The position numbers and the translations under genes were made by a program. From the NCBI GenBank assembly GCA_000091205.1, contig AP006494.2: 64,000 nucleotides of DNA; one strand, written 5' to 3'. The DNA is from Cyanidioschyzon merolae (taxonomy: Eukaryota). Positions 1 through 62,637 of the stretch are shown piece by piece (within the stretch, counting starts at the first letter, position 1; each line of letters starts with the position of its first letter). The notes beneath the pieces were generated by a model that worked only from the letters and a program-made list of their open reading frames with translations, was not told where the DNA came from and did not search any database.

Positions 1-1304
1 GTTTCATTTCGAGCGCCGCAGCATGCACAGACACTTCCCTCTTCGCATATGACACGTCTTTGACAAGTACAGAAGGCCACCCTTGACACCCTTCTCCGTT
101 TTCGCTCCCAGTATCTGGAACCGCGACTACGGCTCTTCTGCTGATCAATCCCGGGCGATGTGAGCATCGCCCGCTGTGCACGAAACCGCATGCTGTTCCA
201 TTCGATGGAGGATGAAAGAACAGAAACTAACCACTGACTAGCAACTCGATAACAGTTTCTTTAGACCTTGACAGTACGCGTTGAAATGGGGAAAAGCTTC
301 CATATCTTCCAAATTTTACCTTCTAGGCGGAAGGTCCCGCGAGCCGGACGAGTCTGCGGTGCTAGCTAGTGCTTCATGCTTCCTCCAGTGGCAGGTGCAG
401 TGGCGAGACCTGCACAAGTCGTCCGCAACGCATTTCATCTAGGACTAGACGCAGCAAAGCTACATCTGGGCGTCGCCCTGGTCGCAGTGGACTCCCAGTA
501 TATCGCTTCGCGCTGCTGCAGACTCCTAGAATGCTGATGTTCGGGGACCCCGCGTCCGATGAACCACGCCTCGAGCCGACGCCCTCAGTGGTATGCCACA
601 GCTATTCTGTCGCCATGCAGCACCTGCTTCAGCGGTGGAAGCGCTACGGCGGGTGCTCACGGCAGACTAGGTGCACGATAGAACATACAAAACGACCAGC
701 ACATCCGAAAGGAATTACAAATCATGAAACTCGGTGGCAGGTGTAGCAGTGCAATGAACGCTCGCCCGAAAGCCAATACCCACCATCAATCCGTGATCCA
801 TGGTCAATGCAGACGTGTTGCCATCGGCAAAAATCGCCTGCATGATGCGCAAAGCGCCACCCGCTCTGGGGGCATTCAAGCGCATCCATCTTTGTCGCAA
901 ATTAAGGATCCCACTGCCCGCACGGCGGCGCCAGCAACTGCGCCATCGCGGATCGACGGCGCGAACGCGCGGCGCCGAGTCGGCCATTCGCCAAGAACAG
1001 CAGCGATCTTGGAACGCTTGCTAGGGCGCGCGCCCTGCACCAGGGCGGCCCAAAGTGCGCGGGCACGATGGCGTGCCTCGCAGCCGAGGCAAACACTGCG
1101 CACGGCGGGTCGGGGCACTCTGACCCAGTCGCTGCTGTTGTTGATCACAGGACCGAGGCTAGATGCACGACCTCCAACCGAAGCGGTATACGCTCAACGG
1201 ATGGCTATGGTTTGTCGTTGTGCATAGCGTGACGCAGCTACTCGACTCTGCGTACTTACTACGGATTGCCATTCATTCTTCACGTTTGATACCGCATTTA
1301 AATC

Positions 1305-1916
1305 ATGAAGAAAGCGCTGGCATTACTTCTTGTTGGTATGATGGCCACTGCTGGTGTGGCACAGGCATCTGAGGTCATGGAAAACGAAGGTGCTGTCTTC
1401 GAGGAAGCTCCACTGGAAACGACGGAGCATATGTACTATCAGGATAATAAGAAGCCCTTCTACGTCAACAACCAGCCGTCATATAAGCCGAAATACAAGA
1501 ACTACTACCAGAAGAAGAACTTTTATCAGAAGCAGACCTACATCTACACGAAGCAGCCTATCTACACCAAGCAGCCTATCTACACGAAGCAGCCTATTGA
1601 GACGAAGCAGCCCATCTACAAGAAGCAACCTATCTACACGAAGCAGCCCATCTACACGAAGCAGCCGCAATATGAAAAGTCGTACCAGCCGCAGTACAAG
1701 CAGAAAGAAGTGAAGACGTACATTCCTCTGAAAGAACAGAAGCAACAGCAAGTATACCAAAAGCAAAACAACTACCAAGCAGAGAAAGAGTACTATGCGC
1801 TGAAGAAGCAGTACAAGGGCGAGCAACAGAAAAAATATCAGAATGAGAAGAAAAAGCCGTACCTTTCGAAGAAAAAGTTCTACGGCGAGGAGAATAACAA
1901 TCAGTACTACTGGTAA
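1305..1916 (+). CDS. Secreted low-complexity Tyr/Lys/Gln-rich protein with tandem hexapeptide repeats (YTKQPI)n
   Basis: 203-aa ORF. The N-terminus MKKALALLLVGMMATAGVAQA is a classical signal peptide. The central part is 18-nt tandem repeats encoding KQPIYT about 8 times. The C-terminus is rich in K, Q and Y. Third codon positions stay G/C-biased like neighbouring genes, consistent with a native gene. Confidence 0.5.
   Translation: MKKALALLLVGMMATAGVAQASEVMENEGAVFEEAPLETTEHMYYQDNKKPFYVNNQPSYKPKYKNYYQKKNFYQKQTYIYTKQPIYTKQPIYTKQPIETKQPIYKKQPIYTKQPIYTKQPQYEKSYQPQYKQKEVKTYIPLKEQKQQQVYQKQNNYQAEKEYYALKKQYKGEQQKKYQNEKKKPYLSKKKFYGEENNNQYYW
1544..1668 (+). repeat. 18-bp tandem repeat (aagcagcc[t/c]atctacacg)n, about 7 copies, coding
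   Basis: Direct reading of the sequence. It produces shadow ORFs in the other frames (1354..1713 +, 1479..1826 -). Confidence 0.8.
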
Positions 1917-3059
1917 GCTAGCTAGCTAGCTGCTGACGGGACGCCGATGGAATCGCGTGCGGGCGGGTGTTCGGCTTCCTGCACAACCGAAGCACCGCAT
2001 CGTTCCAGACTACAGCGGGCGCAGGTCCACTACTGGCGAAGGGTTCACAGCTGGAAATCCGATTGCATTGTGGTCCGCGGGCGCGACTAGGCAGCATTCT
2101 CTGAGGAGGCTCGTTGTAAAATGGACAGGAACCTGTTACGAATCCACTCACATACCAGGCAACACTGAGTTCAGCATTCAGTGGAACAGGTCGTCGAATT
2201 CGGGCGGGAACGCTCGAGCTCCGGTCGCTTCTCTGTGGCATCATCAGCGCCAGCCTCTGCGGGACTGCTCAGTGACTGCTTCCGTTTCCCCTCTCTGATG
2301 TCCGGCTTGCAATACGCCAGTCTCTCTTGTCTCCAAAGCTCCGATATTAGTAGTCGTTGAGGAATTTTGATGGCAGCGTTCCAGTCCCGATTTCACCGCT
2401 TGTGGATGTTTTCAACGCATTTCATTCACAGGCGGAAGATGCGATCTGCGATTCGCAACCCATTGTCATCGTCTTTGAACGCAGCGTCGGTGCACCGTTC
2501 GCGGTGGTTATACACGCGCATGGTTAGTTGTTCCCATATGCTCACCACAGAGACTCGAGCACTTTCGAGCGCCGCCCTGTGGTCCGTGAACACCTGCTTC
2601 ACCGCTCGGCAGCTACCCGAGATGGGCACGGAAGGCTGCACCCGATGCCAAACCTTCGGTTCGGGGGCTTCTCTGGTCGATGCCCTCGGCGAGTACGCCG
2701 TCCGCTGCAAACGCTAGCGCACGCAGTTCCTTTCGATGGAAGATTTCTGGAACGCTGTGTTGCATATGATAAAACACGTACCGGAAGCACAACCCAGGGC
2801 GGAGAACACGTCGAGAAACTTCGGTCCGTCTGCGCTGCCTTGGTGCGCAGCTGTGACGGACACTCCACTGGGAGCGATCGCTGCGATGATTCCGGTTCAA
2901 TTCCAAGACCCTTAGCCAGGAGTCCAGAGCACACAGGACCGTGTTTTACGCATATCCGGTGAGACGTTTCGTGCTGGTGTAGAATACCAGGACGTCGATG
3001 GCCACAGAAAGATGAGGATTTGTCTGTTGAACGGATTCGATCATTGGCCGTGATCAGTT

Positions 3060-3290
3060 CAGTGGGCGTGCAGCCTGGTCTAATGAGCAAGTCGTCGAGT
3101 ATGTTTCGTCATCAATCCAGTGCAGCGAATCGTTGCGCCCATGATTCGCTTTGGAGCAGAGAGATCGAAGCATTGGAAGATGTATGATTTTAGCATGCCG
3201 TGCGTATGGAAAGGAGAACAGTGGTGGCTTCTTCGTACGCATTGAAAGATGATATTGGTTATTCAACGAACTCATTTCCAAGAGTGTCGC
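3060..3290 (-). repeat. Fragment of the distal end of the dispersed ~1.2-kb repeat family ('WIDDET' segment)
   Basis: The reverse complement contains tggattgatgacgaaaca. About 100 bp of flank is alignable to 18000-18050 and 40540-40590. Confidence 0.4.
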
Positions 3291-3530
3291 GAATCATCTT
3301 CATTCCGGTAATGTCATGAGTTTCGGTGGCAACGCGTCAACGGAGCTACCTCTGATGCACGATCAAGCATCCCAAAGCGACGTATGGATCTGTATGCCCT
3401 TATTGCTGCTCTTGGAATGATGACGCTGTACATCTAGGTAAAAGCCCCGAGAAAGATTCGAAAGGCAGGAATAGAGCAATCCGTTCAGTATTCCATTTAC
3501 ATCTGACACGAGCGGAGCCATCAGCACCGA

Positions 3531-7928: not shown

Positions 7929-8744
7929 TCGCTTCCGCGAGCGTCACGCGGTGTCCAGGCAGGAGCACGAGGCGCTCTGTGAGTGGCAAAACACCCCGCG
8001 CTTTCTTCGAAAGCCGTGAAACTCGAACACCGCACCTCTATCGGTGCTTGTTTCTCAAAGAAATTTAGGTTTAAGCCAAACACGGAGTTTTTCAGCGTGT
8101 GGTCAGGTTAGCGCGCCACCCACCGGCAAGCCAAGGCAACCAGTAACGAGTACAGTTCGTCTCGTTGCTCCGGGTAACACACGAGGGCTACTCTGGGCAG
8201 GGCACCTCGCGCTATACACTTGGACTTGATACTGCCTTCGTTTACTGGAATTTTCAACGAAATATCTCGAGCATGCCCAGGAGACCATACATACTTCTTT
8301 CGAAACTCGCTGGCTATGTGGAGCGCAGATTCCTGCGGCAGACCAGCTAACCGTCCAACAAACGCGCTAGAGAGAGGCGCCTCGGTAGCCGCTGAGGCGT
8401 GCTCGAGTCCTCATGGACGCTTCTCGAGACACCGTCGCGCCTTGTATGGGGTCTTCTCCACGACTTCATCCCGTCGCACGCTTCCTTGACGTCTCTGTGA
8501 AGCGTATAAACCGCTGCTGGTTGTATGCAGGGACATGTACGCTAAACAGCGCGACGAAGCGACCGGTAGCGGCTCGGAAAGCTCGCCCTCGAGTTGCAAG
8601 CAAGAATGCTGCACTCCGGCTCTTCAGGCTTCAAGCATTCGCTGCCGAGAACCATCCGACATTGTTTTCCATACGCCTCCGTGACTCACTACACCAGTAC
8701 GTGTTCGAATCGAACGCTGAACTAGTTGCTTCGTTTCAGCCTTG

Positions 8745-9750
8745 ATTTTTTTCCCCGGACTTTTCTTTTTTCCAAATGTGCAGCCCGGACATTCGAAATG
8801 CGTCATCGAAGGCCTACGGATTCATGGATGGCGATAGGATTCTGGGTCGAATGTTCGGAGCGGCTCCTTCGACGCTCTTCCGATGGAACTCGTAACGTCA
8901 CCGGAAACGTTATGATTCACCAAGTCATGGAACAGTGGTTCGTTCAATATCTGATATTGTCATCCAATTCATACGGACAAGCCTCTGTTTTTCTCCGTTC
9001 CTTACGTGTCGCATGCGCAAATCACGCAGTCCTCAAGTTTTCGATCTTGCTGTTTCAAGGCAACTCGTGGGCGCTGGAATTTGTCCCGCTGGATTGGCGA
9101 TGTAAACAAATAACGACGACAACGTTGTAGGACTTGCTCAAAGAGCTCATGTCGAAACGTCACAGAACCGCACATGACAAATCATCGATTCCGTTCGAAT
9201 GTGGAATCCTGCTCCCTTTGTGTCTATCGAAGAAACGCCATTCCACAGCGGGACGAGAGTGCTCCTGGGCCTTGATCCCAGAGACTCCCGTGGCATCTGT
9301 TTGCATGGGAACAGGTCTTGGACTGGGACCTCGGTCCTGGCAACCGTCGCTTCCGGTGGAGCGTGCACCACCGCTTTGCACGAAGAGAGCGTTGATGGAT
9401 CCAAGTTACTCGACTTGTTTCATCACGAACAACGCCGCGCACAACAAATCCTCTACCGAAATGAACAGCATGCGCTTGCATATGTCTCGGACAGAGCAAT
9501 CGCCAATGGGATCTTCAAGAGGATGCCCCTGATCGTAGGATATTTTGTCGGGCGCGGAAACGAAGCAGGGCATCGAGGAACGCCCTCTGTACCCGTCAAG
9601 GGCATCCGTCGAGCGACGTGGTCAGCAGTCGTGTGGTACAGGGCCGGCCCCCGAAGCACGATACGATGCGATAGACGTATGAGCAAACCTGCCAACATTC
9701 AAGCGTCACCGTTGTGAATGACGCATCGAAGCTGCATACAATCATGAGGA
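8745..9750 (-). mobile_element. Dispersed repeat family, copy C (diverged, inverted relative to copies A and B); probable decayed non-autonomous element
   Basis: Segment 8745-9160 aligns at roughly 70-80% with 34290-34720 and, as reverse complement, with 24020-24400. Segment 9250-9720 aligns as reverse complement with 23560-23830 and 17300-17520. No frame is conserved between copies. Confidence 0.6.
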
Positions 9751-10293
9751 AATCGGCAAGCGATGCGTAGATCGCGACTTGAACGCTACCATCAACAGTC
9801 TTCGACGACAGACCAGTGAGCTGGGCGGAAACGGAGTGACCAGCGTATTCGAAGCTACAGATAAGCGAGAAGAAAAGGAAGCAGTCACAGAAATACTTGC
9901 AAAGGCTGGTGTTGACAATTGTGTGACGAGTCCCCATTTTAGTTTGCGCACCCCGAGTTCAGGAACCTGTTTCATGTTATGCTGACACGGGTCCAGACAC
10001 CGCTACGCTCTACTGATCCCGGACTAGCATTCCTATCAGAGACAGAGACTTGGTCCAGTCAGGGATCTTCAGGTAATCACGGCCTCTCTCGGACGCATAC
10101 TGCGATACCGGATGTGTACCGAGGTTGCCGCAGACGCGGAACTCGCCCTGTGCAGTCGCCGAAAAACGTGCGGCACGTCTTCTGCAGGCGACGCTTCATT
10201 CCGCTACACAAGGCGTATTCCCGCCGCCCGGCGACGAGTCGACAACTGCGAGAGCTGCAGAACATGCGAAGCTTCTCCTGAACTCTGTGCAGA

Positions 10294-11262
10294 ATGTTGG
10301 GCTTTCAAGTTGGATTCGGGAGCGGGATCAGTCTTTTTGAACGCCGCAGAGTACTGGCTGGGCAAGTGCACCGACTCTGGCGCGGTTCCCGGTCGCTTGC
10401 GGTTACCGCATCTCGAAGGCCTTCGGTGTCGGTTAGCTGCAGGCTACGCAATCCTGGCGGGTTTCATTTGCCTCCACGAGTACCGAACGAAGAGCATGAG
10501 CTCCGTAGAGCGATCGAGCTTCTGGGTAATCGAACGCAGCGGCGACTGCGACCGGAGATGAGGGAAGCGCTCGCCGCACTTTTGGGCGAGTACCCGCCTA
10601 CCAAGGAGATCGCCCAACAGTGGAAGTACCGGCTTACGCGAATAGCCCAGGAGGAACAAGTGAGACGAAAGCAAAGCACAAGTGCTCCGCAAGGTGCAGA
10701 TCCTGGCCCAGTTACGCGACGACAGGCACTTCTTCGGGAGATCGAGCAGAACCTTCTCATACCCGAGAGCGACGAGCAGGTGCAGCGGGCGTTTTCGATC
10801 CTAGGCCGAATTATCGAACGTAAGGACAAACCTACTGAAAGCGAAGAAGCAGAACTCCAGCGCCTATTGGGTGTGGTGCCTGGCGGGGTGCTGACCGCCA
10901 AGCGCGCGGTACGGGTGTTGCGGGAGCAGGTTGCGAGTCGTCGGCGTTTTGAACGCTGGCCACCGTTTGTACCGCTGGCCTTGGAGCGCGTTCGTGAAGC
11001 CCGCGTCATCCTTCGCCAGATCGCTATCCAACGCTCGGCTGGTGCGAAAGCTGCTGCTCGCTTGAAAGAACTGCTGGCTGGTGGCTATCCGCGTAATCAA
11101 CGGGTCGCCCGCTCGTGGTGGAAACGCTTTTGCCTCGTGGAGCGCTTGTATGAGAAAAAGGCTTACAAAGCGATGCGTAAGGAACTTGTGGAACGTATAC
11201 GGGCGGAGCGACGAGCACGTGCTGAAAAGCGCCGTCTCCAAGGCGATGCACCACCCGCATGA
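10294..11262 (+). CDS. Hypothetical basic/charged protein with Arg/Ser-rich N-terminus (possible organellar presequence)
   Basis: 322-aa ORF in an otherwise gene-sized gap. K/R/E-rich helical repeats. No family recognised. Confidence 0.35.
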   Translation: MLGFQVGFGSGISLFERRRVLAGQVHRLWRGSRSLAVTASRRPSVSVSCRLRNPGGFHLPPRVPNEEHELRRAIELLGNRTQRRLRPEMREALAALLGEYPPTKEIAQQWKYRLTRIAQEEQVRRKQSTSAPQGADPGPVTRRQALLREIEQNLLIPESDEQVQRAFSILGRIIERKDKPTESEEAELQRLLGVVPGGVLTAKRAVRVLREQVASRRRFERWPPFVPLALERVREARVILRQIAIQRSAGAKAAARLKELLAGGYPRNQRVARSWWKRFCLVERLYEKKAYKAMRKELVERIRAERRARAEKRRLQGDAPPA

Positions 11263-13512
11263 GCGATTGCTGCAGTTGCGCATTTTGTGATCAGAAGCCA
11301 AAAAGCGCTTTTTCTCCAGCGATGGAATGCAAGCTGCCTGTTTTTGCGGTATACGAGCATGGGTGTTTTGGCTGCACAAGGCGTTCGAGAATAGATCTAT
11401 GACCCTATTCGTTCTTTTCATCACGAGCGGGAAGTCGTGGATCGACTGTATCTGGTTCATCAGCGCTTCTGCTTCGGTGTTTGATAGGGCATGACGCATG
11501 ACGCAGCAATGTGCGTGCCCTATGCTGCACTGTTTTTACAGCTCGTGGTTGGTGAATTCGCATCAAGCGAAAACGCTCAACCTCGCTGCCTACATGCGAA
11601 GCTGAACTAGCAACCGGGAATCGCAAGGCCGTATGTACGGGCATCGCACTGCGGCACCAGAAGCATCAGCTTCGAGTTGCCGCTACGGGGTTGGATTCTT
11701 CGAAAAACGCCACCGTCTGTGGCGACTTGGTAAGCGCTGCGCGCTACACCGAGCGCTGCTGCTCGCAGATACGTTACCGACATGCGGCGAGCGCCGCAGA
11801 GGGACTCTACCCGTGCCAGCCACATCGCGCGAGACACGAGTGCTCGTTTCCGTTAACGCTCTGTACATCGCCAGCGACGAGTAACACCATTCTACTGGCG
11901 CTGATCCTTACACTGTGGCGACGCGTTCCTACGCGCTTGAGTTCTGTGGGGACGAGGTGCGCCTCTAGCGTCGTCGTGTGCTGTGTTGTTTACAGCAGGG
12001 CAGCGGCGTCGTCGCAACGGCGCACACGTTGACTGCTTGGAGGCTATTGCATCGCGAAAGGCTATCATGCCACGCGAACAAGCTAGCGCAGCTCCTGGTG
12101 AATTACGACGGCAACAAGCCGTGCTGCCTTTTTCTAGTAGACACCAGACGACAAGACTCCAAATCGCGAGCGATTGACGAAGTCCGACAATCATGGTACG
12201 GCGCTCTACCTCGGAGAGCAACAGAAGCACATCGATCGATGATTTGAGATGCACTTGCCTAAACTGTATGCTCCAGGCGTTTCTAGTAGGAGCCAGGCTT
12301 GCACGTGCACTCTTGAACGATGCTCGTCTCGATCATGTTCCGCTGGGTGCCTGCGGACTATCTTTTTTCAGGTTACAGAATCGATGCATCGAAGTAGAAT
12401 CCCCCCGATCCATGTTTGTGGACTGCACCACGAACAGAGGCAACTGCTCAGCCCTGTACACCACTACGTGGCATGGAGAGCAATGAATTCTAGAACACTT
12501 GTGCCAGCATTCCTTGTTTCTGTTGTTGTTTGTTTTTCTCACAGGCATTCAGCGAAGGGATTGTTCCCTATAGAATTGAGACAAGTCGTGGAAAGACTTG
12601 GTGCTTTCGTTGCCAGCATGCGAGAAACGTTCTGTTTTGCACAAGCCGATGATTCTCCGGTCAGCCGATGGATGACCTACGCTGCTCGTAGTTTGTCCTT
12701 CTGAACGTGGTGTACCCACGACAGAACTCTGCTCCCTCTATGAGAGTGTATGGAGAGTGCAGGGTCCGGTTTTGTACAGTTCCCTTTTTTATTAGTTCAG
12801 GACGACATATACGAAACACGATGACGAGAGCTCGTTGAAAAAAGCAGAGAACAGGAGCGTGAAACAGAGACCAATACACTAGATGATGGATGGTAATCTG
12901 ACTGAACGTGACATGGCGAGGCATGCAATGCTGAGAAGCTTCCCATGGCGTGATTACACGACCAGCCATGCACACAGGCACTTTCCCGAGGGTGACTCGA
13001 ACGCATCGATCAAGACCTGGGAATAGCTTGTGCTTCAGAAGCATCGAAAAGCTATATGCCGAGCGTTGCTATGAGGGCATTTTTTAGTACGCAATGTGCT
13101 CATTGTGCGGAAACGCGAAAGACTTGCGATGAAAACGAATCAGTAGCCAGGCGAAGCGAGAATGGATGTCGTCCGCAGCATGGCACTGGTACGGTGCGGT
13201 TCGGCAATGCAGCTAGCCTGGAGTGCCTCATAGATGCTCAGGGAACGTTTTCCCGGGCGATTCATCAAAGACAATGGTTTCTTTTTCGTTTTGCGGCATT
13301 GCTGAGGATGGACAATTCTCGGATCTGACTTGCCTTGGTGACGCAGGGCTTGATCCATCCAGCCATGTGGAGGGCGCTAAACCTACAGCAGATACCTGCT
13401 TCTGCCGTCCATCACTGCAGCAATCAGCATTTTCTCTATGATGAGGGATCACTGAGATACACCTCAGTCCGCTGAGTGCGCGATACTCATTGACATGCAG
13501 TGAAGCAATGAC

Positions 13513-16589: not shown

Positions 16590-16928
16590 ATACTGATGGC
16601 GAAAACTCCCGGTGCTGCAGTGCTATTGAACAGCTACGGTACCGCGTTTCGCTGGTACCGCCAGCACGTTCGCGAGATTCGCTGCGCAGCGACCTGGGCA
16701 CGGTGGCGGCGCTGCAGCAGCGTCGCCTAGCAGCCGTTGCTACGCGTCTTCGGCTGAGAAGGGGCCGCAACGAGGGCAGGACGCTCGTTCGGATCACTGA
16801 CATCGTCGCTATCCATGTCAGCACAACATAGGACAGGTCCATCTAGCGAACTCGGGTATACACGCTGGAGGCTGGGTATCTGCCCGCGGTCGTTATGATC
16901 ACCAGGCCTGACGGGTTTTCAGTGAATG

Positions 16929-18160
16929 CTTCACTTTATTGTCTAATACCTCACGCCTTGAATATGCCGGACTCGTTCTTTGCTCCAGGTCCATTGTTTA
17001 TCGTTGGAGAATGTTGGTGGCAGCGTCGATGCACAGAAGTCGCAGCTTCCAGCTGTCATCGACGCATGTCGTGAACAGGAGGGAGTCGGTATCAACGCTT
17101 CGCGTACCATGGATATCTGCTTTGTGGACAGCGTCGGTGCGCCTGTTGCAGCGGTAGCTCTTGACTTTGGTCAGTGGTTGCCGTATGTCCACCATACGCT
17201 CTCTTCTGAGCGCCACTCTGTGGTACGAAAAGGTTTGCTTCGTCACTCGATACATGCCGTCGACCGGTACAGAGGGCTGCGCTCGGTGCACCCCCGCGTT
17301 TGGATACCACCAGGTCGTAGCGCATCTTTTGCGCTCCATTCTGCGCGCGACCAGAGAAGCACCAGAACAGTTCAGGGCTGGTGATAGCTGGGAAGGATAT
17401 GGCGAAAAAGAATGAACGGAAGATGGGTGCCAAGGTTGCGACCAACTCGTACTTGGATCCACGAGCGCCAAATTCGCAACGGACAACAGACTATGTGCTA
17501 GGGGCTGAATCTAGCCAAGGTGCAGCTCAACCCCAGTCTGAGTTGCGTACTCCGTGGTCACTCTTGGATGATCGAAATTGACATTGTTTAGGGTCCGCAC
17601 TGAAGCTTGTGGAAGTAGACAACAGGAAGAGTGCGTCCACGCGGCACCGGCTTTTGAACGACCCCGCCTGTTTGGCGACTCGCAGGCCAGCACACGACAG
17701 CAATCCCGCTGGAGCTCGTCTCATCATTCTGTTTGTTTATCGTTTCTTTAAGAACACTGGTTTGCTCTGCTTTGGGTACCCGGACACAAGTCCAACTGTT
17801 CTCCCGAATAAAGACTCATCGAGTGAGATGCAAATTCGTCGCTGCTGATACAAGATCTCGCGTCTGAGAACAAAACCGATCGTGTGTGTATCAACACTCT
17901 ATGGTTCTCCGTACAAGCGAGCATACTTATTCGTTCACCCATATCTTCTCATCACAGCGCGTATCAGAAAGACGGAAAATTCGTATCCTATGGCCTTGTA
18001 AACACTACTCGTAACAGAACGTATGCAATGGAGTGGATTGACGAGCAGACAGTCGCGTGGACGGAGTTCGACACGTTCGACCGGGGCTGCACCACGTTCA
18101 GGAGAACGACTGCCATGAGGGCAGATCATCCACCTGCTGACCTCAGAATAGCTGACTAGA
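16929..18160 (+). mobile_element. Dispersed repeat family, copy A (apparently full length, about 1.23 kb); 5' 374 bp (16929-17302) is about 98% identical to copy B
   Basis: Gapless 374-bp match with about 7 mismatches to 23185-23558. The remainder aligns to 23558-24400 at only about 65-75%, with indels. Lies 340 bp upstream of the agmatine deiminase start. Confidence 0.75.
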
Positions 18161-18471
18161 AGATGTAAAGCTGTCTTTCACACGCTCGCAGTAATCGCAT
18201 CGAGTCTTTCCGCGGTCTCTCTGCCACCTACAAGATACGTGGCCTTCGTTGAATCCCCGCAAAACAACACTCAAAACCAACACAGACGTGTTCATACGGA
18301 TGTTCCGGAACTCACTACCTTAAATGGAACAGGGCGCACGCTGCCTTCTCCTACGCTGATCTCAGATCTGCCAACGTTAAATCACTGCCGCAGATCCAAG
18401 TTTCAAAAACTGGACCAAGCAACCCCCTGCGAAAGGAATAAGATAGAAGCGTGTGCAGGCTCGCTGACTGC

Positions 18472-20807: not shown

Positions 20808-23184
20808 GGCGTCGTTTGAGGGAACCTATCAGACAGCTACGTCCGCATCAGTCGCGCGCACTGTTCCATGTTCAGGGACGTTCGCTCGTGTGCACAGGCA
20901 TGCTTGCCTTGAGTAGCTAGAGCCGCTGTAGCGGCAGCGACGGTAGTCCTGGAGTCTGCCGCGGACTTGCGAGCACATGCACGAGCAGGCGTGCGTTCAG
21001 CAGCTAGAGCTTTCGTAGCGGCAGAGACTGCGGTGTCGTAAACCGCTATTTCGTCGTCTGCGTTTCGCGAAGCATCTCCTCGGTAATATTGAACGATGGA
21101 ACATCATGATCGTTCACCACTTTCCCAGGAAAATCGTTCCCGATGTAGATATACACCGGTTCAACTTGCTGGATTGCCGAAACGTTTCGTACGAGTGCCT
21201 TGCTCCAAGACGGTTCGAATGCCCTGTTTCCTGGCCATTGATTTGTTTTCTTGGAAACTGGTCAGCGTTTCATCACCGAGGCCACACTGCGTATGAAAGG
21301 ATTCTCTCGAAAAATCGCTTGACACAGAGCCGATGGATGCCCACGAAGCACAAGATATTTCTGGAGTCACTATCTTTTTCTTTCGTACATTCAGCGAGCA
21401 TCCGTGCCAATGTTGCGTATGTGTCGTACTGAACTCATCGATGCGAATCGTGCAGGGCGATTCCTGCACTCGTTGGGCGCTCTCGTCGAAGGAGCAGAAC
21501 TGCGGCCCATGCGCACTACAGCGGGCACAGCGAGATGGGCTACCTCCAGACGACGCAACTTGTCGATCATATCCTTTTCCAGCTCAGTGTACAAGTTGGT
21601 GAATATACGCTTCGGGCCGCGGTCCAACCGAATCCGTTCGCGACTCGTGCAGCGTCTCATGTACGCATGCTAGATATCGTCCTCATGAGCTGTTTGGACG
21701 CTCTTGTAATGTTTCTGAGCAAAGCGTACTAAGCATCCGCTTCTGCTTGATGCCGTGCTCAGCGCAACAGAATCGGTGCTGACGCTGTCATTCGAATTGC
21801 TGGAACGCCTCCTGGTGTTCATCATGCCAGGCTCCTGATAATCGTGCTCTGGAAACGTTGAGCAGCTTCAACTGCTCAACTGCTCGGGTCTTTCGCTCCG
21901 TCCTCTTGATTCAGAGGCCCGGCGAAAGCCGTCATGTGCTTCAATGACGGATGCATGCCCGCAACTTTGTCTTCCTCTCCATCTATCTTGAAGGCTTGAA
22001 AATGAGTCTCATTGCTCCGTTCAGATCTACGTTTCGCAAAGTTCATGCAGATTCATATCCGGTGGCCTCTATCATCCCGATGAAGTGCTTTCAATTTTTG
22101 ATGATTGTAAACGAGAAACCTTGAACAAGCCTCGCCAATGGTCTCCGCAAGATTGTTCGAGTGCTTTATAATTGGTCGTACGGACCAGCGGTAGCACACT
22201 GAGGAAGCCACACTGTATAGTGCAGCATTGTTTACAATGGGTTCGTTGGCCTTGATCTAATCTATGAGGACCACATCGAATAGACGCATGATGAGGCGCG
22301 AGCGCTCCGATTCAGGGAGCGATTCCACTGTGCTCTAGGTGCTCTGTTGAGGAAAACGCAGGATCGTAAGATGCAAGCAGAGCAGCAGTCACGCTTCACC
22401 CATCTTTTGGATACCAGCGCCCTAGATGTGAGGCCCAGAGCGATACCACCTTCTTGGACGATCTGAAGCGCATCCCGCTCTCGTTGCGACATCTCTTCCA
22501 AACTCGTTACAATCTCGATCTTTTCTGCCACCACGAGTTCGCCATATGCCTCCAACGATACTCCAAGACTATGTTCCATGAGTCGCATCTTCTCTTGGCT
22601 GGTGAGGTGAGGGCACAACGCTCACAGCATGCGTCTCGCAAACTGCTCGACATTGATCCGCATTCGTTGATGTGCAGCCGAAAAATAGTTCACGCATGTC
22701 AAGCACGATAGTATCTGGATGCTACGGAATGCTTCGAGCAGAATCCGGGTAGTGTTTGCTGAGATACACCTGCTGCTGCATGGCGTGGAGCCTCACGCAA
22801 GCTGAAAGCAGCTTCCGTTCGCAATGTCATATCATTGGTGCTCCATCGACGTTGCGTTCTCTGGACATGAACATGACCGGCTACTCGAACAGCTCTTTAC
22901 AGTTCACAGCTTCGCAGCCGCAGATTCTGGTTCATTTTCTGATGCAGAAAAGTCTGCGAGCGTATATCATGGGCATTTCATGGACCAAAACACGGTCTGA
23001 ATCACGCGCGAGCGCCACAGGGTCGCGGAGCGCTAAGCTCACTTTTTCACTATTCTGTCATCTGCGCACCCATGTCAGAGTGGAATGGAAGCGGTACAGG
23101 TACCTCACTCGGGCGCATATTCGGGAATACGTGTCTCCTCGAACGGTAATCAACATCTGCATTTGCGGGCTTTCTCTGCGACTT

Positions 23185-34289: not shown

Positions 34290-35300
34290 GTCCTGCCTTT
34301 CGAATCATCATCCGAGCTTTTTATTGGATGCACTACCTATGTATTACAAGTCCAGAGATATGCGCTTACGGATTCATACACTGGTTCAGGATGCTCCGTT
34401 GTCTTTTCGTAATGGCTCCATTGAGTCTATGCCACTTGAAATCGCCACTTCAACGGAATCAAGGTGATTTGCGACGCCCTTGAAGGAGAATTCGCAAAGC
34501 ATCGAACATCTTTATCCGATTGATACGTACAGGGTTCCAATACGCTCCTTACCTGACGTGCAGAACGCTCGAGCCATATATTCTTCAAGTTTTCGATCTT
34601 GCTGTTTCAGAGCAACGCTTGGGCGCAGCAATTCGCCACGCTGGATTGACGAAGACAAACACTCGACGTTGTCAGGTGACAACTGCTTCACGAGCTCACG
34701 TCGAACGTTCCCTGCGCTTGTCACGTCAAACAATCAATCCTGCTCGAAAGATAAATCCGATTCTTCGTACTCGTCGACCACCGAGGGCGTGACACCTGCA
34801 TGTTACCCCCCTAGGGTACACTTCCTGAAATTCCGATTGCTTTTGTTCCCATCGAAGAGGACTTTGAAGTCGGACTTTAGTCATCGGAGCGATCGCTCCC
34901 ATGGAAGCGTGCGTAACCGCTTTCAACGGATCAAGCATAGATGGATTGAACTTTCTCAGCTTGATCTCCAGGCTGGATTCTCCTTCGTGTCCTTGGGTCA
35001 TCTTGCACAACATTGCGTTCCACAAATCCCTATCGCATGGAACAGTGTGCGTTTGGGCGTACAGCGGACAGCATACCCGCTGAAGGTAGCGTCCCGGAGA
35101 AGCCCATGATCATGGTGCACGGCACCGAGCGCAGAAACCGTGGATGGCATCAACGCAAACCTTCTGTACGCGTCGCGGGCATGCACCGAGAGATGCAGCA
35201 AGCGTTCATGCGCCGCTGACGACCGTTGAAGCAGGAGGATGTGTGGCGGATACACAGCAACACCTGGCCACAGTCAAGCACCGTTGCTGCAAAGCGTACT
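34290..35300 (-). mobile_element. Dispersed repeat family, copy D (diverged, same orientation as copy C)
   Basis: 34340-34720 aligns with 8800-9160 (ttcaagttttcgatcttgctgtttcagagcaac against ctcaagttttcgatcttgctgtttcaaggcaac). 34720-35000 aligns with 9160-9420 and, reversed, with copy B (agtcatcggagcgatcgctcccatggaagcgtgcg). Confidence 0.6.
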
Positions 35301-35870
35301 CAGAGGCTCTACGAAAAGGGAATGAAAATGGCACGCGAAGCGTCGGTCGCAACTTTTGCCGGTCCATGAGCTGCTTTGACAACAGCCGGAATCCGCGATA
35401 TCGGGACTTGGACGATGCCATCAACATCCTTCGATTCACGAGGATCGGAGCTTTGAAGCCAAGAGACACCTGCGAATTTAAAGCCCGAGATAAGGCAGAG
35501 GAAAAGGAAGCACTCGCATAAAATGTCCGCACAGTTCTGTGTTGATGACAGTTGGACGATAGCGAGCCTCGGGTGCGCACACTGGACTTGCGGGATCTTC
35601 ACGATCGTTTGCTGCGATGAGGGTATTCTGCGCTGTACGACTTGCTCCTCGCGACTGCTGTACTGCTCCGTCGGCAAAGGGGCGAGTGTGTTCAACTCTT
35701 GCCACTGATGCAGCTGGACGTGAACTCGGTTGTATAGGTTTTCGTTTAGACACGTTTTTGTAGCTTCAGAGGGCGCGCCTGCTGCGTAGGTCGCTCGGGA
35801 GAAGCGCGTTCCTCGTCACGCTCCCGTTGCCGCTGCCAACAGCAAGTTAGGGTGCGCGCTGCTCGCGTCG

Positions 35871-38504: not shown

Positions 38505-40439
38505 TGGGCAATAATCCTTCTCATCGACAGTCTTTAGCGTTTCAGCACAATACCCCCACTGGGTTCTAAACGATTTGCTAAGAAAAAGTTCGCTCGACAT
38601 AAATCCGACAGACGCTCCGGAATCACGATACATTTCCGAATGTTTATCGATGTGTTCCAGTCTCGGTGCAGAATGCGCTGGTCCGCCCGGTTGCCGGGCG
38701 TTTCACACCATGAAAAGCCTCTCAGCTCCGATTATCTCGCGATTTCACGTCTGGTCAGCTTGGTGTTCACCGCCTCGTGCGTTAGACTCCGTTTCATTCT
38801 CTTCTCTTCCACTAGTTTTGAGCGTGTACCCGTACTTTTGATGCATCTACGTCGTCCTGGAAGCATCGATATGTATCGTACAGAGAATCGATTCCTGCCT
38901 TCCTTGTACGCTGGTTTTGATGGAACAGGACTGCAGCCTTTTCGCGCTACAGCACGTCCAGTGTCAGACGCCAGCACCAAACGACCTCCCGTTTCGGTCA
39001 CTTTCTTTTCCAACGCATTGAAAAAATGGCGAAAGCACGGCGCTTGCCTCCCTGCAGCGGATACCGTTGACGACCCCGGCACAAGCCCATGAAAAACGCC
39101 CGCCAGAGATCATCCGTTTGAGTCCTTTGGACGCTAATGTGCGCTCTGAATGGAGTATACACTGCATCGCCCAGCTTGCTACGGTGCTGAGAGCGTGGAG
39201 ATGTGTCCGGACGCCGTCACTCCACTTGTTGGTATGCCCTCGGGCGCCCATTCAGGCCGAGCCTCGGGCGTTGCAAGCCCTGCCAGATTCGAGCAGCCTC
39301 ATTCGCTCTTCATTCAGCTCTTTGGATTCGTCGTCTTGAATGGGAATTACGCTGACGGCCATAATGTTCATCAACCCGAGATCAACGCCCACTCTGATGT
39401 TGATTCCCCTCATCTACATGGACCTGTTGAGAATTTGTCTCGTGGCGCGACTCAGGCCCAGGTTTCACAAATGATCTGAAGATGGATATGCTGTGGATCT
39501 CCGCCCTCCTCCCAGTCACAAATATTTCCACATCCTCTCTGTAAACGACAAGATCTTGAACGAGATCCGCTGGTTCTCAGCATGATGATATTCGCATGTT
39601 TCATCCTTGGTCGCTGTGGCCAGCTCTTTCTTCTTCGTATCCTTGCACTTGGCAGAGTGGCATCCGTGTGGCCTCCATACTCTATATCCGTTTGTTTCCC
39701 CGTGGTGTTCAGAAGCCCTGGTTGCACGGCGGGGCTGGAACCCAGCTTTTCGATCCGTACGTTTATTGTCTCTGGAGTACCTTTTCGTCGCCTCCTCCGT
39801 CGCGAGAACGCACACGGGCCGAAGACCGTCTTTGCGCTCCCTAGAGCGCACGAGCAGAGAAACTAGAAAACAGCAGTCAAGTGATGATTAAGTTTTCGAG
39901 AGATTTTTCGCAGGCCAGTGTGACGAATGCGAACGACCCGCTTACGTACCCTTGAGCACTAAAATGGCACTGGAAAACAGAAACGTCGTCTTCAACTGGA
40001 CTGAATCAGAGTGCATAGGCTGGCGCGAGGCGCAGCTCAACGCCATGCTCAACTGCGTACTCCTTGGCCGCTTTTGCATGATGGAAAGCGATGTCGTCGA
40101 ATACCCAGACAGAAGCATGTGGGAAGGAGATCCCATCAAGGCTGCTTCGACGAAGGATGAGGTATTGAACGATCCTGTCCGTTGCGCGATGTCTGGGCGA
40201 CCAGTCCACTGGAACGCCGCTGAGGCTGATGTTGTAGGAATGCTCGCGCGTCACCGCTTTGCGAAGAGCAGTTTACCCTCTTTGCGTAACCACGGACACG
40301 TGTACCGTTTCTCTCGAACGCGTTTTCCCCGATCGAGACGAACATCCATGCCGTCCGTCATATACGTTGGCGTCTCGCAACGATTTCCATCATATGCTGC
40401 TCAAAAGCACGATGGTCTCTGTTGGCAGCGTGCTTGTCC

Positions 40440-44260: not shown

Positions 44261-46543
44261 CACGGGGAGGTATCGTGTTCAGGAGCACCTCGACGAGCGC
44301 GAGATTCCTGTCTAAACGTGAACGCGAGTATTTTTGGACACGAGGATGTTTGCAGGAAAACTTGATTCCTATGGTTGCAGGACCTATATCCAGCTTCAGG
44401 GAATCGTACCTTGTCCTTCCTTAAAAGTCATGGTGTCTGAGGCGCTCGCGTATGTCTCAGGAAGCAGTTCGAATACGCGGAGAGTGCCCTGTTGCCTAAC
44501 CCAGAAACCCGGGACGCTGCCTTTACCGGTCATTGAGTGCCAGTGAGCGCTGCCTTGAATGCGAGATGACGCTAGCCACGGGGCCGTGCGAGTCGATGCG
44601 AACTTGCCGAAGCGTCGCTTCTGATATGCGACTTGCGCCAAATGCCGCTGGTACTGCATTCGACAGCCGGTCTTTCGTGGTACCGTGAATGCAATCCGGT
44701 TCACAGATGCTAATCGCCGACGTAAACAAATAGAGTTATCAGCCGGAAGCTCTTGTTTCCAATGCGCAGAATAGGATGTGGGCATTGCGTCCCCGATAAC
44801 ATGCGTGAGCGATGCGATTGGTGATCGATCCTGTACGGGAACCTCCCTGGAGAAGACACATCGCTCCATTCGGGATCGGTCCAGCGCGTCAGGTGCACGC
44901 TTCGCGCTTGAAACAGGAGCTGCAGTGTTCTGGTCGCTCCGCTGCAGACAGACGAGCGCACGCTGGCAAGCACCCTGGGGAACGCGCACCGCCGCCCCGA
45001 CGCCATGCCAGCGATGCAACCGGCATCCGAACTTGTCTGCGGTTTACCGGACAAGGACAGGCAAGCGATTGCTAGTGCGTCACTGCTGGAGTATCTGGCG
45101 TCTATGTTCATGGTGTGCTTGCCGCGTTATTCCTCGAGCTCTCCCTGCATCTACGTCGAGATGCTGCCCGTGTCTGTTGAGAGCGAGCGATCTGCGGTCG
45201 ATTGCCTTCCTCTCTGATTCTAAGGGATCAGTGATTGTATCCGGAGGTCGCTCAGCGCACGACTTCGACCCATGTACGGGGAAGCAGTCTTCGCTCAGTT
45301 CGAGAGTCGCTATGTTTCTGGAAATGTGGGCGAGACTTGCCTGCGGGGTCATGGTTCGTTCGAGTGACATTCCTTGCAGTATTGTGGTAGAGACCGAACG
45401 CCTTTGCCGTTTCCTCACATGCCTCAGCATAAGGGCTGAATAGAGACCGTCCCGCTGGTCTCCGAACCGCACCCAAGGGACCGGTGTGCTGCATGACCAG
45501 CCAACCCGCTGACACGTGCCTTGCTACGACGTAGAATCCGTACATCTGGGCAAAAAATCCTGAATGCAAAGTAGCAGTTCTGACTCCCTGCTCAGGTACG
45601 GATGAAGCGAATCAGCAGCGCGCAGTCAGGATGCCAGCGGCTCCAAGGCACTATGGTGAGAACGCCCGTGCGTCCGGAACAACCACGGGGTGTGCTCGCC
45701 CAAAGCGCTCCAGCCTCAGGGAATCAGCGGCGAGGAACAAACTCTCTCTCTCTCTCCGATGCGACTGCTTCCAAAAGACCGCGAACATTCGCAATACAAA
45801 CACACCAGAAACGAACCTGACAAGTGCTCACCCAGTAGAACACGAGCCGGGAGCGCAACGATGCCAGCGCTCGCTCCATGCGCTGCGTTTCTGGCGCTCT
45901 CCCAACAGTGCCTGGCTCCCGGAATCCTCGTTCGAGGTGCCACAGATGCGGCTCTATCCATGCCCCTTGTCCCGTGTTGGAGCGATCTCTGGTCAGCGTC
46001 AGGAGCTCAGAATGCCCCTGGTATGCCACTCTGATCTCATTCATCGACATGAATCATCATTCATGGCATTGCTGCATGGAACTGCAGGCGTATCGAGGCC
46101 CGTCACCCTGCAGCCGCTGCAAGGCCGATTCATGAGCTGTCACGTCCTCGAGCCGACGCCCTCTGTGCTACAGAGAAAAGCCGTTCTGTCACCGTGATGC
46201 ATCCGTACCAACGGTATAAGCGCTTTTGCGGATGATTAGGGCAGGCACTCGGCACACGATAGAACGTATGAAACGACCAGAATACCCGAGAAGAAGTATA
46301 GGCAATGGAACTTGGAAGCACGGGTTTTGACAGATACTTTACCGCACCCTGAAAAACAGACAAACAAACAAAGAGAAAGAAGAGAAAAAACGCACAATCC
46401 AAGAGCGCCGGCCTTCGGAAAAATTGCGTCAAATTGGATAAAAACCAGCTGGCACCAGCGAGCGCGCATCTCATGTTGCCGCGCACTGACCTGCCCTGGA
46501 GCAACGCCCTGGGCAAGCGACAGAGCGTACGCTGCACCTTGAC

Positions 46544-49957: not shown

Positions 49958-51679
49958 GAACGGGTGCCATTGCGGTTTGCAGCTGCCTCGCGCACGTCCT
50001 CGAGGCCTCCTGTGGTGGCGGAACCGCTCCAGTTCATTGTCAGCGTTGTTTCAGCGGGGGCCCCATGTACGAGTCTTTGTGCTGTATATGCTGTGCATCG
50101 ACCAGAGTGATGTCAGTGCGCAGCAGTTTCAGGGGACGGCGAGGAGGTTTTGCAGTGGTAGGGCGGCGGCGGCGGCGGCGGCGGCGGCTGTCGACCTGCG
50201 CCACAGGCGTCGTGTTTTTCCCGTCATCGACAGGGGATTTATGGCGACCAGGGACCTTCGATAGCGCGCTTGATGTCAGCGACTGGGAAAGCGTCTACGC
50301 TTCCATGCCCGAGGCCTGCAATTTCCGTGACCCATCGTTGTCCATGCAGATGCTGGACAGTTCGCATGTGCCAGCGGGCGTCGAGCCTAGCCCGGGCGTT
50401 TGCAATTGCGCATCAAGTGCCTGTGTGCCGATGCAGTTCATAGACAGAACAACTTTGCGATACCACTGAGGGCGTCGGCTCGCACGGCACTGTTCATCTG
50501 ACTCGTCGTCAGTTTATGCTCCGACAGTCTCTGTGCGTACCGAGACTTGCCGGCGCGGCACGACGCGTTGGAGAAGCGCACAGTGGTTCGCGAATCCTGG
50601 ACACTGGGTCTGTCCTCCGCTATGATGTATGGAAGACGTCGCCTGTTCATGACGCGGGTCGCTGTTCGGCACCTATCCCTGAGGCGCAGCACGAACTACT
50701 GGGCCCGCGTGCTCATCCGCTCCACGAGATGCACCATGGGCATCTGCTTTGCAGTGTCGTTCGTGCCAGATGTATCTTAGCGCGCCCTGGGTGCAGCCAA
50801 ATGCTCCAGGAAGCCTGATACAGCTTCACGCATGCAAATAGCAAGAATGCGTATGGTTTCCGGCCCCGTGTATGCCTAAACTCGATCGCTTGATTCATCG
50901 CGCGTTGCAGTTTCTCCGCACCGATCACACAACGCCCGATGATGGTGACGTGCTCGTATCCCATCGGTTCCAAGAGGCTTCGGGTTCCGTCTCTGGATGT
51001 TGCGTTGGTTCCTTCAAACGCCCGACAAACCGTTGCTCGACACGATACGGCACCACGCTCGTAACGCTGCGCACCACCGAGACGTCACACTTGAAGCGAC
51101 ACCGCACGCGGCGGCTGTTCGACAGGGACACGCTGGCGAGCGAAAGCCGGTATCAGTGCGAGATGCCGCACTGGACGGTCGTTGTTCCTGACGACGCACC
51201 ACAGCGGATAGGAAGCAACGTCCACACGAGCGCCCTGCGCGGTGGTACACCCCTAAAGCGATGCTTGCTCAGAATGAAGATCCAGGTGGAGCACCACCGA
51301 CGCTATCCTGTCAGTGTTGCTTGCTGCAATGCCGAGGCAGACGCGTGTACGCTGCGTTCCCCGCAGCGTTCGCGGTATACGGCCCAGGTTTAGATCCGAA
51401 TTCGCGAATTCCCTCTACCACAAGGACGAAGTGATTGTATCCGAGCGTTCACTGAACACCAAGCACCAGTGTAGATGCACCAGTCACCGCATTGTTGGTC
51501 GCGATCAGCGGGATGCATCCGATGCGCCCAAATGGAGCGGATCATGTGTGCATCCAGGAATGCCGCCGACCCGCACTTGTTAGTCACCTGGAGCAGTACA
51601 TTGTGTTTTTACCAGTTTGGGTATTCTCGGTGCAGGCCAGTGTTGATGCCGGTAAGCGTTCGCGATTTTTTGCAAAGCA

Positions 51680-62425: not shown

Positions 62426-62637
62426 GCTAGGTCGCTAGGTCGCTAGGTTGCTAGGTCGCTAGGTCGCTAGGTCGCTAGGTCGCTAGGTCGCTAGGTCGCT
62501 AGGTCGCTAGATCGCTTGGTCGTTAGGTCGCTAGGTCGCTAGGTCGCTAGGTCGCTAGGTCGCTAGGTCGCTAGGTCGCTAGGTCGCTAGGTCGCTAGGT
62601 CGCTAGGTCGCTAGGTCGCTAGGTCGCTAGGTCGCTA
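62426..62637. repeat. (GGTCGCTA)n minisatellite, about 26 units, with a few variant units
   Basis: gctaggtcgctaggtcgctagg... read directly from the sequence. It lies 76 bp upstream of the MGRN1-like ATG (minus-strand gene). Confidence 0.95.

Follow-up and report, generated by a model that had tools for sequence, protein, structure and literature searches.

What is the repeated DNA in the spacer between the SNF2/SHPRH gene and the open reading frame (ORF) at 10294 on chromosome 12 of Cyanidioschyzon merolae 10D? The locus lies at about 8745–9750 of the 64,000-nucleotide stretch that we analyzed (hereafter, the window; contig AP006494.2, assembly GCA_000091205.1). A sequence-only reading of the window had described it as a diverged member of a repeat family of ~1.2 kb, an old non-coding or decayed element family rather than a gene family. 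We put at roughly 80% the probability that this locus, copy C, is a dead copy of a ~1.38-kb non-autonomous, chimeric class II (cut-and-paste) transposon family, in which the front of an IS630/Tc1-mariner-type transposase is joined to the end of a Fanzor1 protein. Copy C has the following features, in window coordinates.

8692..9993, + strand: copy C, whole element (nhmmer and hmmalign mapping, leave-one-out hidden Markov model [HMM], termini compared with the end consensus)
8692..8717, + strand: left terminal inverted repeat (TIR), degenerate, from the aligned ends of 12–16 copies; consensus CACCCGTGTCAGATTAAAATGGAACA
8776..9445, + strand: remnant of an IS630/Tc1-mariner-type transposase ORF (tblastn, translation, feature map)
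9446..9453, + strand: junction of the transposase and Fanzor halves, at consensus nt ~775–781
9454..9943, + strand: remnant of a Fanzor1 C-terminus (tblastn, consensus Fanzor part, feature map)
9968..9993, + strand: right TIR and right end, TGTTTCATGTTATGCTGACACGGGTC; consensus ..TGTTCCATTTCATGCTGACATGGGTG

When 8501–10000 was compared with the window by blastn, all three partners named in the sequence-only reading were recovered: 8837–9401 matched 24316–23745 (65.5% over 577 nt, E 5e-30), 8962–9100 matched 34514–34652 (72.7%, E 5e-17), and 8863–9074 matched 3346–3135 (68%, E 1e-12). The repeat is therefore real. The shuffled control that had been proposed as a check agreed, with an HMM trained without copy C detecting 8704–9984 at 663 + 107 bits, versus at most 3.2 bits in 200 dinucleotide-preserving shuffles of the 1.9-kb sequence searched. 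Three strings quoted as examples were located at 9034–9057, 8982–8999, and 8861–8879 (the last two as reverse complements). Copies A–D were collinear across ~1.3 kb in a four-way MAFFT alignment, and copy C was 75.7% identical to the family consensus. Membership of 8745–9750 in the family thus stands, but its limits and unit size had to be extended, to ~8692–9993 and ~1.38 kb, respectively. The four substantial copies were likewise upheld, and two fragments, E and F, were added to them.

2161..3514, - strand: copy A, full length (blastn, MAFFT, HMM), 75.9% identical to the consensus
23070..24452, - strand: copy B, full length (blastn, MAFFT, HMM), 73.6% identical
34247..35624, + strand: copy D, full length (blastn, MAFFT, HMM), 74.4% identical
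16819..17340, - strand: fragment E, consensus nt ~840/885–1369, the Fanzor-derived 3' part
8..213, - strand: fragment F, consensus nt 775–981, whose first nucleotide is exactly the family junction (ATCCTC...)

All four copies had been placed in 5' spacers. This is so for B and C, which lie in divergent spacers, B being head-to-head with CML294C (the LigT-like gene, ATG at 24682), but not for A and D, which lie 3' of genes: copy A starts ~17 nt past the SNF2/SHPRH stop codon, in a convergent 3'-3' spacer that faces the 1305–1916 (+) ORF, and copy D starts ~107 nt past the stop codon of the AAA-ATPase gene. Within fragment E, a 387-bp tract (16916–17302) is ~97–98% identical to 23172–23558 of copy B and is present in all four strain contigs introduced below, while sequence 3' of it (16798–16915) is only ~50–70% identical to copy B. 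The tract resembles the product of ectopic gene conversion between old copies that are separated by 6 kb.

Further loci were collected by scanning metagenomes with a degenerate 21-nt pattern from the best-conserved block. Roughly two-thirds of the 120 loci found (at least that number) were chance matches in unrelated metagenomes and were removed with the family HMM, leaving at least 11 additional independent family loci on C. merolae-like contigs. A first consensus was built from 11 copies and a refined one, of 1368 nt, from 17 loci. All full copies had their ends and junction in common. Every pair of copies was 55–62% identical, each copy being ~74% identical to the majority consensus, and conservation was about even over the element, with no conserved core beyond the former coding motifs. 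Such star-like divergence is what a single copying burst followed by independent decay would give. The family occupies 6.1 kb of the 64-kb window (9.6%), and five more copies were found within the ~90 kb flanking the pattern-selected copies. Extrapolated to the 16.5-Mb genome, these figures would give several hundred or more copies, which is only an estimate because the sample is small and transposons cluster.

Did this family ever encode protein? Direct comparison of single-copy ORF proteins across A–D was weak and frame-inconsistent, as the sequence-only reading had found, and taken alone it pointed to non-coding DNA. The consensus approach, which that reading had itself suggested, overturned this: the 17-locus consensus matches transposon proteins and restores both a 263-aa transposase frame and a Fanzor1 C-terminal frame, so that recognizable ORF remnants cover ~90% of the unit (~1.25 kb). 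Near-neutral amino acid identity between copies is indeed observed, but reflects decay after insertion rather than a non-coding origin. The view that the present ORFs are arbitrary holds for 8726–9130, which is outside the ancestral frames, and fails for 9199–9717, which is within the transposase and Fanzor frames. An open frame 0 at consensus nt 310–780, upstream of the Fanzor homology, was dropped as a meaningful candidate because antisense ORFs of 150–215 aa in the consensus show that chance ORFs are common.

The 263-aa frame opens at nt 74, and its first ~233 residues comprise a helix-turn-helix (HTH; GVAPSTLCRW, at the start) and a DDE_3 transposase (VAIDETAF ... FIMDNIAFH). The corrected 260-aa frame-1 translation of the first consensus scored 34.6 bits against Pfam DDE_3 (E 2e-8; cutoff 28.6), aligning with profile positions 3–117 of 146, and the last part of this match overlaps the Fanzor-homologous region; the first-consensus translation also matched HTH_Tnp_Tc3_2 weakly (E 1e-3). 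In BLASTP, the refined consensus was 32% identical over 234 aa (E 3e-33) to P0074, an intact 298-aa transposase with DDE_3 at 85 bits. This homology stops at aa 225 of 298, before the PYSPWFNPIE motif of P0074, so the third catalytic residue is missing; the consensus reads directly into Fanzor sequence. With its catalytic triad incomplete, the 1.38-kb family is therefore non-autonomous. By tblastn, the consensus transposase matched copy C at 61% identity over 215 aa (E 3e-73), and the independent, intact P0074 matched 8776–9360 (E 6.5e-6). The landmarks in copy C are the ancestral ATG at 8776, the HTH at ~8857–8886, the first catalytic-D region at 9220–9243, and the second-D region at 9419–9445.

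From nt ~781, the consensus continues in a different frame, reading ILYRMEQRALA...KKPMIVGYGTGRGNGGGHRGEPSVPVKGMY...VWEHLTTFKCHRCEG...FRLCMKCV...NRDLNAAINILRLL. The retained part is the last ~180 aa of a Fanzor1 protein, with its zinc ribbon and NRDLNAAINI, and is 51% identical over 154 aa (aa 521–670; E 2e-48) to P0071, a 682-aa protein with a TnpB/Cas12f zinc-ribbon domain (PF07282, 34.1 bits). PF07282 matched the family consensus itself at E 1.5e-5 and 25.5 bits, slightly below the 26.3-bit cutoff. The C-terminal signature described for Fanzor1, [TS][TS]-x2-C4 zinc ribbon-x(5,50)-RD (Bao & Jurka 2013, Mobile DNA 4:12, PMC3627910), is present in the consensus as TT-FK-CHRC...CMKC...NRDLNAAINI. 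A profile of P0071, P0072, P0068, CMe-1 (the known C. merolae Fanzor1), the Fanzor of metagenome locus L132, and the family remnant, which is linked via P0071, P0072, and P0068, matched the solved Fanzor1 structures 9CF0 (E 9e-11) and 8GKH (E 2.6e-9). The profile was required, as phmmer with P0071 alone gave no Fanzor match among PDB sequences. Copy C itself was matched in tblastn by P0072 at 9415–9642 (41% identity, E 1.5e-12) and by P0071 at 9388–9642 (E 6e-7). Its Fanzor homology runs from 9454, with the IVGYGTG block at 9532–9552, the first CxxC at 9704–9715 (now degenerate), the NRDLNAAINI remnant at 9780–9799, and the ancestral stop region at 9926–9943.

Homology to P0071 and P0072 begins at aa ~521–523. 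The RuvC-I aspartate, the "DPG" motif, and the N-terminal WED/REC regions are absent from the family, and the DPGRVN motif of P0072 (~aa 460) has no counterpart in its consensus; no nuclease can therefore be made from the family element. In the intact Fanzor loci L130 and L131, similarity to the family HMM begins only at nt 781–784, which fixes the position of the junction.

The element is bounded by TIRs of ~26 bp, CACCCRTGTCAGMWTRAAATGGAACA. The best segment score between the left end and the reverse complement of the right end was 16, a value reached by 0 of 20,000 shuffles; the suggestion to look for TIRs was thus borne out. In most copies, the right end is followed by TA (or TG), as it is in the intact Fanzor loci L130, L131, and L125. 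In these three loci, the right-end motif TGTTCCATTT..ACA.GGTGTA is found 3' of the Fanzor stop codon, 50–120 nt after the called ORF end, which it overlaps in L125. The stem TACGCCY/RGGTGTA, with seven pairs, one of them compensatory and one an invariant G-U, is common to four sequences only, and this 7-bp conserved stem no more than hints at an omega-RNA at the family right end. No poly(A) or A-rich tail was found at the family 3' ends.

Is copy C still doing anything? Its transposase frame contains three in-frame stops downstream of the ATG at 8776, the first catalytic D is now E (FVSIEETPF), and a 32-nt deletion damages or removes the second-D region. In the Fanzor half, a 45-nt deletion has cost the second CxxC, and a frameshift lies near 9600. 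The 172-aa ORF at 9199–9717 joins both remnants in one frame by a chance effect of the 32-nt deletion. Stops and frameshifts were observed in every window copy, and neither of the two element ORFs tested (23499–24314 and 9199–9717) has an NCBI protein. Four JGI metagenome contigs (L001–L004) carry the same locus at 99.2–99.4% identity to the window and are therefore other strains. Relative to L001 and L002, family copies had 11.9 variable sites/kb, while other intergenic DNA had 15.3 (p = 0.17) and coding DNA 5.0 (p = 1e-4). Family copies thus decay neutrally, with polymorphism at the level of other intergenic DNA, and we infer that copy C has no present function. On these grounds, the earlier view of an old, decayed element and not a gene family was correct.

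How might such a chimera have arisen? The ancestral element would have consisted of ~26-bp TIRs, the first ~230 transposase codons, the last ~180 Fanzor1 codons, and the Fanzor right end. It would have kept the front two-thirds to three-quarters of the transposase gene, with the HTH and the first two catalytic aspartates, joined directly to the last quarter of the Fanzor1 gene. The simplest origin would be an internal deletion in a composite "transposase + Fanzor1" transposon, taking out the transposase C-terminus together with the N-terminal ~520 Fanzor residues. Since the same junction occurs in all copies, the shortened element would be what multiplied, and since it can encode no transposase, it must have been moved in trans, probably by a related full-length transposase acting on the inverted repeats. 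One old burst of multiplication would then have been followed by neutral decay in tolerated sites, i.e., intergenic spacers and UTR-proximal DNA (UTR, untranslated region).

Several observations weigh against parts of this account. The full-length parent was not found in ~150–200 kb of C. merolae-like DNA, over which tblastn with P0071 and P0072 matched only the Fanzor C-terminal part, so we infer the deletion origin. In fragment F, the Fanzor 3' module is cut at the usual junction nucleotide but has another 5' neighbor, the 3' end of a complete copy (215–826) of the published C. merolae repeat TE-N2_CMe; the transposase half was sought past that copy (827–2165) and not found. A single random deletion does not predict this arrangement, which hints that the 3' module can be exchanged as a unit. 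The right "TIR" may belong to the Fanzor module and not to the mariner-type backbone, because L130, L131, and L125 carry the right-end motif while no left inverted copy of it was found in L130, L131, L125, or L132. In the flanks of 11–16 copies, where a target-site duplication was sought, only A is frequent on the left (8 of 11 copies), and with copies ~25% decayed a TA duplication could not be established. Finally, lack of function is argued only from polymorphism at ~0.7% strain divergence, a comparison with little power to reveal short motifs.

In Fanzor1 and TnpB systems, the region spanning the ORF 3' end and the right end of the transposon encodes the guide omega-RNA. It is this region that the 1.38-kb family retains, while RuvC-I, WED, and REC are missing. 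An alternative to a fortuitous deletion, which we regard as unlikely, is that the family was a "guide-end satellite" that kept just what it needed in cis, namely the mariner-type inverted repeats and the Fanzor 3'/right end that would encode the omega-RNA. Three observations fit: the joining of fragment F to TE-N2_CMe at the junction nucleotide, the presence in C. merolae of a second family in which a near-complete transposase precedes just the C-terminal ~100 residues of a CMe-1-type Fanzor, and the conservation of the right end and its small stem in intact Fanzor loci from similar hot-spring metagenomes. Together they are consistent with, without demonstrating, retention or exchange of the Fanzor 3' end as a functional unit. 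Such a satellite would be able to use both enzymes, transposase and Fanzor nuclease, when supplied in trans, and would parallel in a eukaryote the non-autonomous IS200/IS605 derivatives of bacteria.

Other explanations for the spread of these copies were weighed against that of a dead cut-and-paste transposon. Since every copy lies within a few hundred bases of gene ends, with A and D starting in sense orientation ~17 and ~107 nt past stop codons and B and C in divergent, promoter-like spacers, they might be cis-regulatory or UTR modules (promoter, terminator, 3'-UTR) co-opted and kept beside genes; published C. merolae Fanzor repeats are, moreover, reported to be transcribed (PMC1955436). However, position and orientation relative to genes are inconsistent (A and D 3' of genes, B and C head-to-head), the star-like, nearly even divergence leaves no conserved core beyond former coding motifs, and strain polymorphism is not significantly unlike that of other intergenic DNA and is 2.4x that of coding DNA. 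In a genome that is ~45% coding, surviving insertions are expected to be intergenic anyway, and we consider co-option improbable. A living or domesticated gene family encoding a truncated transposase-Fanzor fusion protein could account for the long, open consensus frames, for the 172-aa ORF that places both remnants of copy C in one frame, and for the ORFs that metagenome gene callers predict on several copies. Yet each copy has its own stops and frameshifts, catalytic residues are lost (the first D to E, and the second-D region deleted in C), there is no excess conservation between strains, and 23499–24314 and 9199–9717 are not NCBI proteins, which leaves this explanation next to no likelihood.

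A retroposon family (derived from short or long interspersed nuclear elements, like the trypanosomatid SIDER) would explain fragments that are truncated 5' and share a 3' end. The 5' part is missing from fragment E (which starts at ~840–885), from a further fragment, S (starting at ~1010), and from F; the 3' end is retained in E and S; and C. merolae has 26 non-long-terminal-repeat retrotransposons (PMC1955436). This reading is largely refuted and hardly credible: no 3' end carries a poly(A) or A-rich tail, the inverted repeats are significant, and the coding remnants are DDE transposase and Fanzor, not reverse transcriptase, endonuclease, or ORF1. The truncations are otherwise explained, by TE-N2_CMe beside F, a TE-N2-like fragment ~100 nt upstream of S, and the conversion tract in E. 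Might the family instead be part of a known C. merolae repeat? Nozaki 2007 (PMC1955436) described 253 copies of a 3.2-kb repeat, ~5% of the genome, with a truncated ORF weakly similar to WSV486 of white spot syndrome virus. Bao & Jurka 2013 (PMC3627910) identified the Fanzor1 of this virus as SWv-1 and described CMe-1A (3169 bp, ~150 copies, no TIRs) and TE-N2_CMe (~70 copies), to which the repeats of Nozaki 2007 correspond. Genome and Fanzor1-derived ORF remnant are the same, SWv-1 explains the old WSV486 similarity, and copy density is of the same order. Against this, the CMe-1A consensus (from the supplement of Bao & Jurka 2013) gave no blastn match to the family consensus at E <= 1e-3, although the same query does find separate TE-N2_CMe/CMe-1A pieces in the window, and the CMe-1 protein matched the family Fanzor part only marginally (32% over 63 aa, E 0.004). 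The family, at 1.38 kb, has TIRs and a transposase half, while the 3.2-kb CMe-1A reportedly lacks TIRs. The gene numbering CML292C–CML294C, deduced from consecutive protein accessions, is also gapless over copy B and, if this deduction and the numbering assumption hold, no repeat is annotated there. Identity with CMe-1A is thus very improbable. A miniature inverted-repeat transposable element (MITE; under ~800 bp, no coding remnant) is excluded by the 1.38-kb length and by ORF remnants over ~90% of it; a de novo survey found no MITE in C. merolae (PMC3964958).

As a non-autonomous transposon, the family resembles internal-deletion derivatives such as Ds from Ac or the deleted mariner/Tc1 copies that precede MITEs, in which both termini are kept, internal coding sequence is lost at one breakpoint, and one master copy is multiplied; unlike a MITE, it still holds ~1.25 kb of former coding sequence. 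Its arrangement has precedents in the Mariner-Fanzor1 elements PUl-1, PUl-2, and PGv-1 (Bao & Jurka 2013, Mobile DNA 4:12, PMC3627910), in which, as in the L132 pair, an IS630/Tc1-mariner DDE transposase lies 5' and Fanzor1 3' on the same strand; TIRs are ~24–33 bp. Unlike these elements and the L132 pair, the C. merolae family is shortened to 1.38 kb, without the transposase C-terminus and ~520 Fanzor N-terminal residues, and is multicopy and fully decayed, with a TA duplication not demonstrable. Its consensus transposase shares 22% identity with the PUl-1 enzyme. The Fanzor remnant aligns to the C-terminal RuvC-II/zinc-ribbon/RuvC-III region of SpuFz1 from Spizellomyces punctatus (8GKH), the Parasitella parasitica Fanzor1 (9CF0), and TnpB of IS200/IS605.

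Like CMe-1A and TE-N2_CMe, the family is Fanzor1-derived, interspersed in intergenic DNA of the same host, and old (CMe-1A copies are ~80% identical to their consensus). Unlike CMe-1A, with which it shares no DNA similarity and only marginal protein similarity, it carries TIRs and a transposase part; it is also shorter, somewhat older (~74% vs. consensus), and, in the sampled DNA, no less frequent. No paper on a mariner/IS630-type family in C. merolae was found in the literature searched, though a prior name in Repbase or Dfam is possible. The 1.38-kb family adds a second, distinct Fanzor1 lineage to C. merolae, one without DNA similarity to the published Fanzor repeat.

Intact relatives were found in metagenomes. 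At L132:1037–3882 (Logan SRR31616077, 46% GC), the intact 298-aa DDE_3 transposase P0074 is followed, 63 nt on and on the same strand, by a 628-aa Fanzor1 with 34% identity to CMe-1 (E 2e-105), and a 16-bp inverted repeat was observed at 802–817/5077–5092; the pair may be a live composite element. The Fanzor part of the family is of the P0071/P0072-type lineage, while the L132 Fanzor beside P0074 is CMe-1-like. The closest intact relatives of that Fanzor part lie at L130:8001–10381, L131:5569–7285, and L125:8001–9811. L130 and L131 are gene-dense (Peptidase_S74, RNA ligase, 2H phosphoesterase, UvrD, 2OG-Fe(II) oxygenase, ATG8), and because of this gene content they may come from a giant virus; an IMG/VR scan with P0068 returned no relatives. 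L125 also carries RNA polymerase II Rpb2.

The window holds further debris of related kinds. Decayed CMe-1-type Fanzor1 ORF remnants were found at 12731–13086 (+), 21392–21840 (-), and 38585–39037 (-) (tblastn E 3e-7 to 3e-12) and account for the weak intergenic self-BLAST matches 12846–13138/38515–38807/21165–21522; a weak match of this type lies at 22343–22729 (-; E 0.04). The complete TE-N2_CMe at 215–826 (-), corresponding to the 5' 636 bp of CMe-1A, is 77% identical to the published consensus and, together with TE-N2_CMe fragments at 46145–46316 (-) and 50442–50505 (+) (83–84%), explains the repeats 551–717/46141–46298/50443–50505. A second, different IS630/Tc1-type transposase remnant family, P0074-like, was found at 17650–18237 (-; E 3e-12) and 39919–40146 (-; E 9e-9). 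On contigs L031:3394–4627, L063:5830–7102, and L096:5657–7027, it consists of transposase aa 1–275 with just the last ~100 residues of a CMe-1-type Fanzor behind it; this is the "transposase + Fanzor tail" layout in a second lineage.

The long ORFs of the window are intron-less eukaryotic genes: SNF2/SHPRH (1465 aa), Nup35, agmatine deiminase, DnaJ, LigT-like, PPPDE, and AAA. Nine window ORFs had exact-sequence matches in the protein collection, seven of which are NCBI C. merolae 10D proteins; the entries fall in the range BAM80866–BAM80882 (BAM80866, 80867, 80871, 80878, 80882), with gene names CML292C and CML294C. In the contig index, the agmatine deiminase ORF had an exact protein match, and the SHPRH and LigT ORFs had none. 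The 322-aa ORF at 10294–11262 (+) has no Pfam match, its exact start is not at NCBI, and metagenome gene callers choose a shorter 234-aa form; it is probably a real gene, because its variation between strains (3.1 sites/kb) is as low as that of known genes. The ORF at 1305–1916 (+) encodes 203 aa, K/Q/Y-rich, with a signal-peptide-like start and many YTKQPI-type repeats; its exact sequence is not in the protein collection, and it accounts for the strong AT skew at 1001–2000. Tandem repeats were observed at 55830–56185 (87-bp period, ~4 units, 98–99% identity), within the 1782-aa ORF 55648–60996, and at 62426–62637 (112-bp period, ~2 units at 96%). Rfam at gathering thresholds and ARAGORN, run over the entire window, returned no structured RNA family and no tRNA.

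The SHPRH/10294 spacer holds a transposon relic only, with no unknown gene or RNA, and copy C is an ordinary dead transposon copy. For researchers working on Fanzor and TnpB, the intact relatives P0071, P0068, and the L132 pair, which come from acidic hot-spring metagenomes, would be candidates for thermotolerant RNA-guided nucleases. For those working on the genome of C. merolae, which serves as the "simplest" genome of a eukaryote and as a chassis in genome rewriting, the literature figure is 0.7% transposons plus one 5% repeat class. Families of the present kind may account for far more of its intergenic DNA than the published 0.7% + 5%. At 55–62% identity between copies, the 1.38-kb family is invisible to standard masking; with CMe-1A/TE-N2 and the second transposase family, it brings old debris of DNA transposons to at least 14% of the window. 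This load matters for placing "neutral" integration sites and homology arms, for the reading of targets of the histone mark H3K27me3, and for the history of genome compaction.

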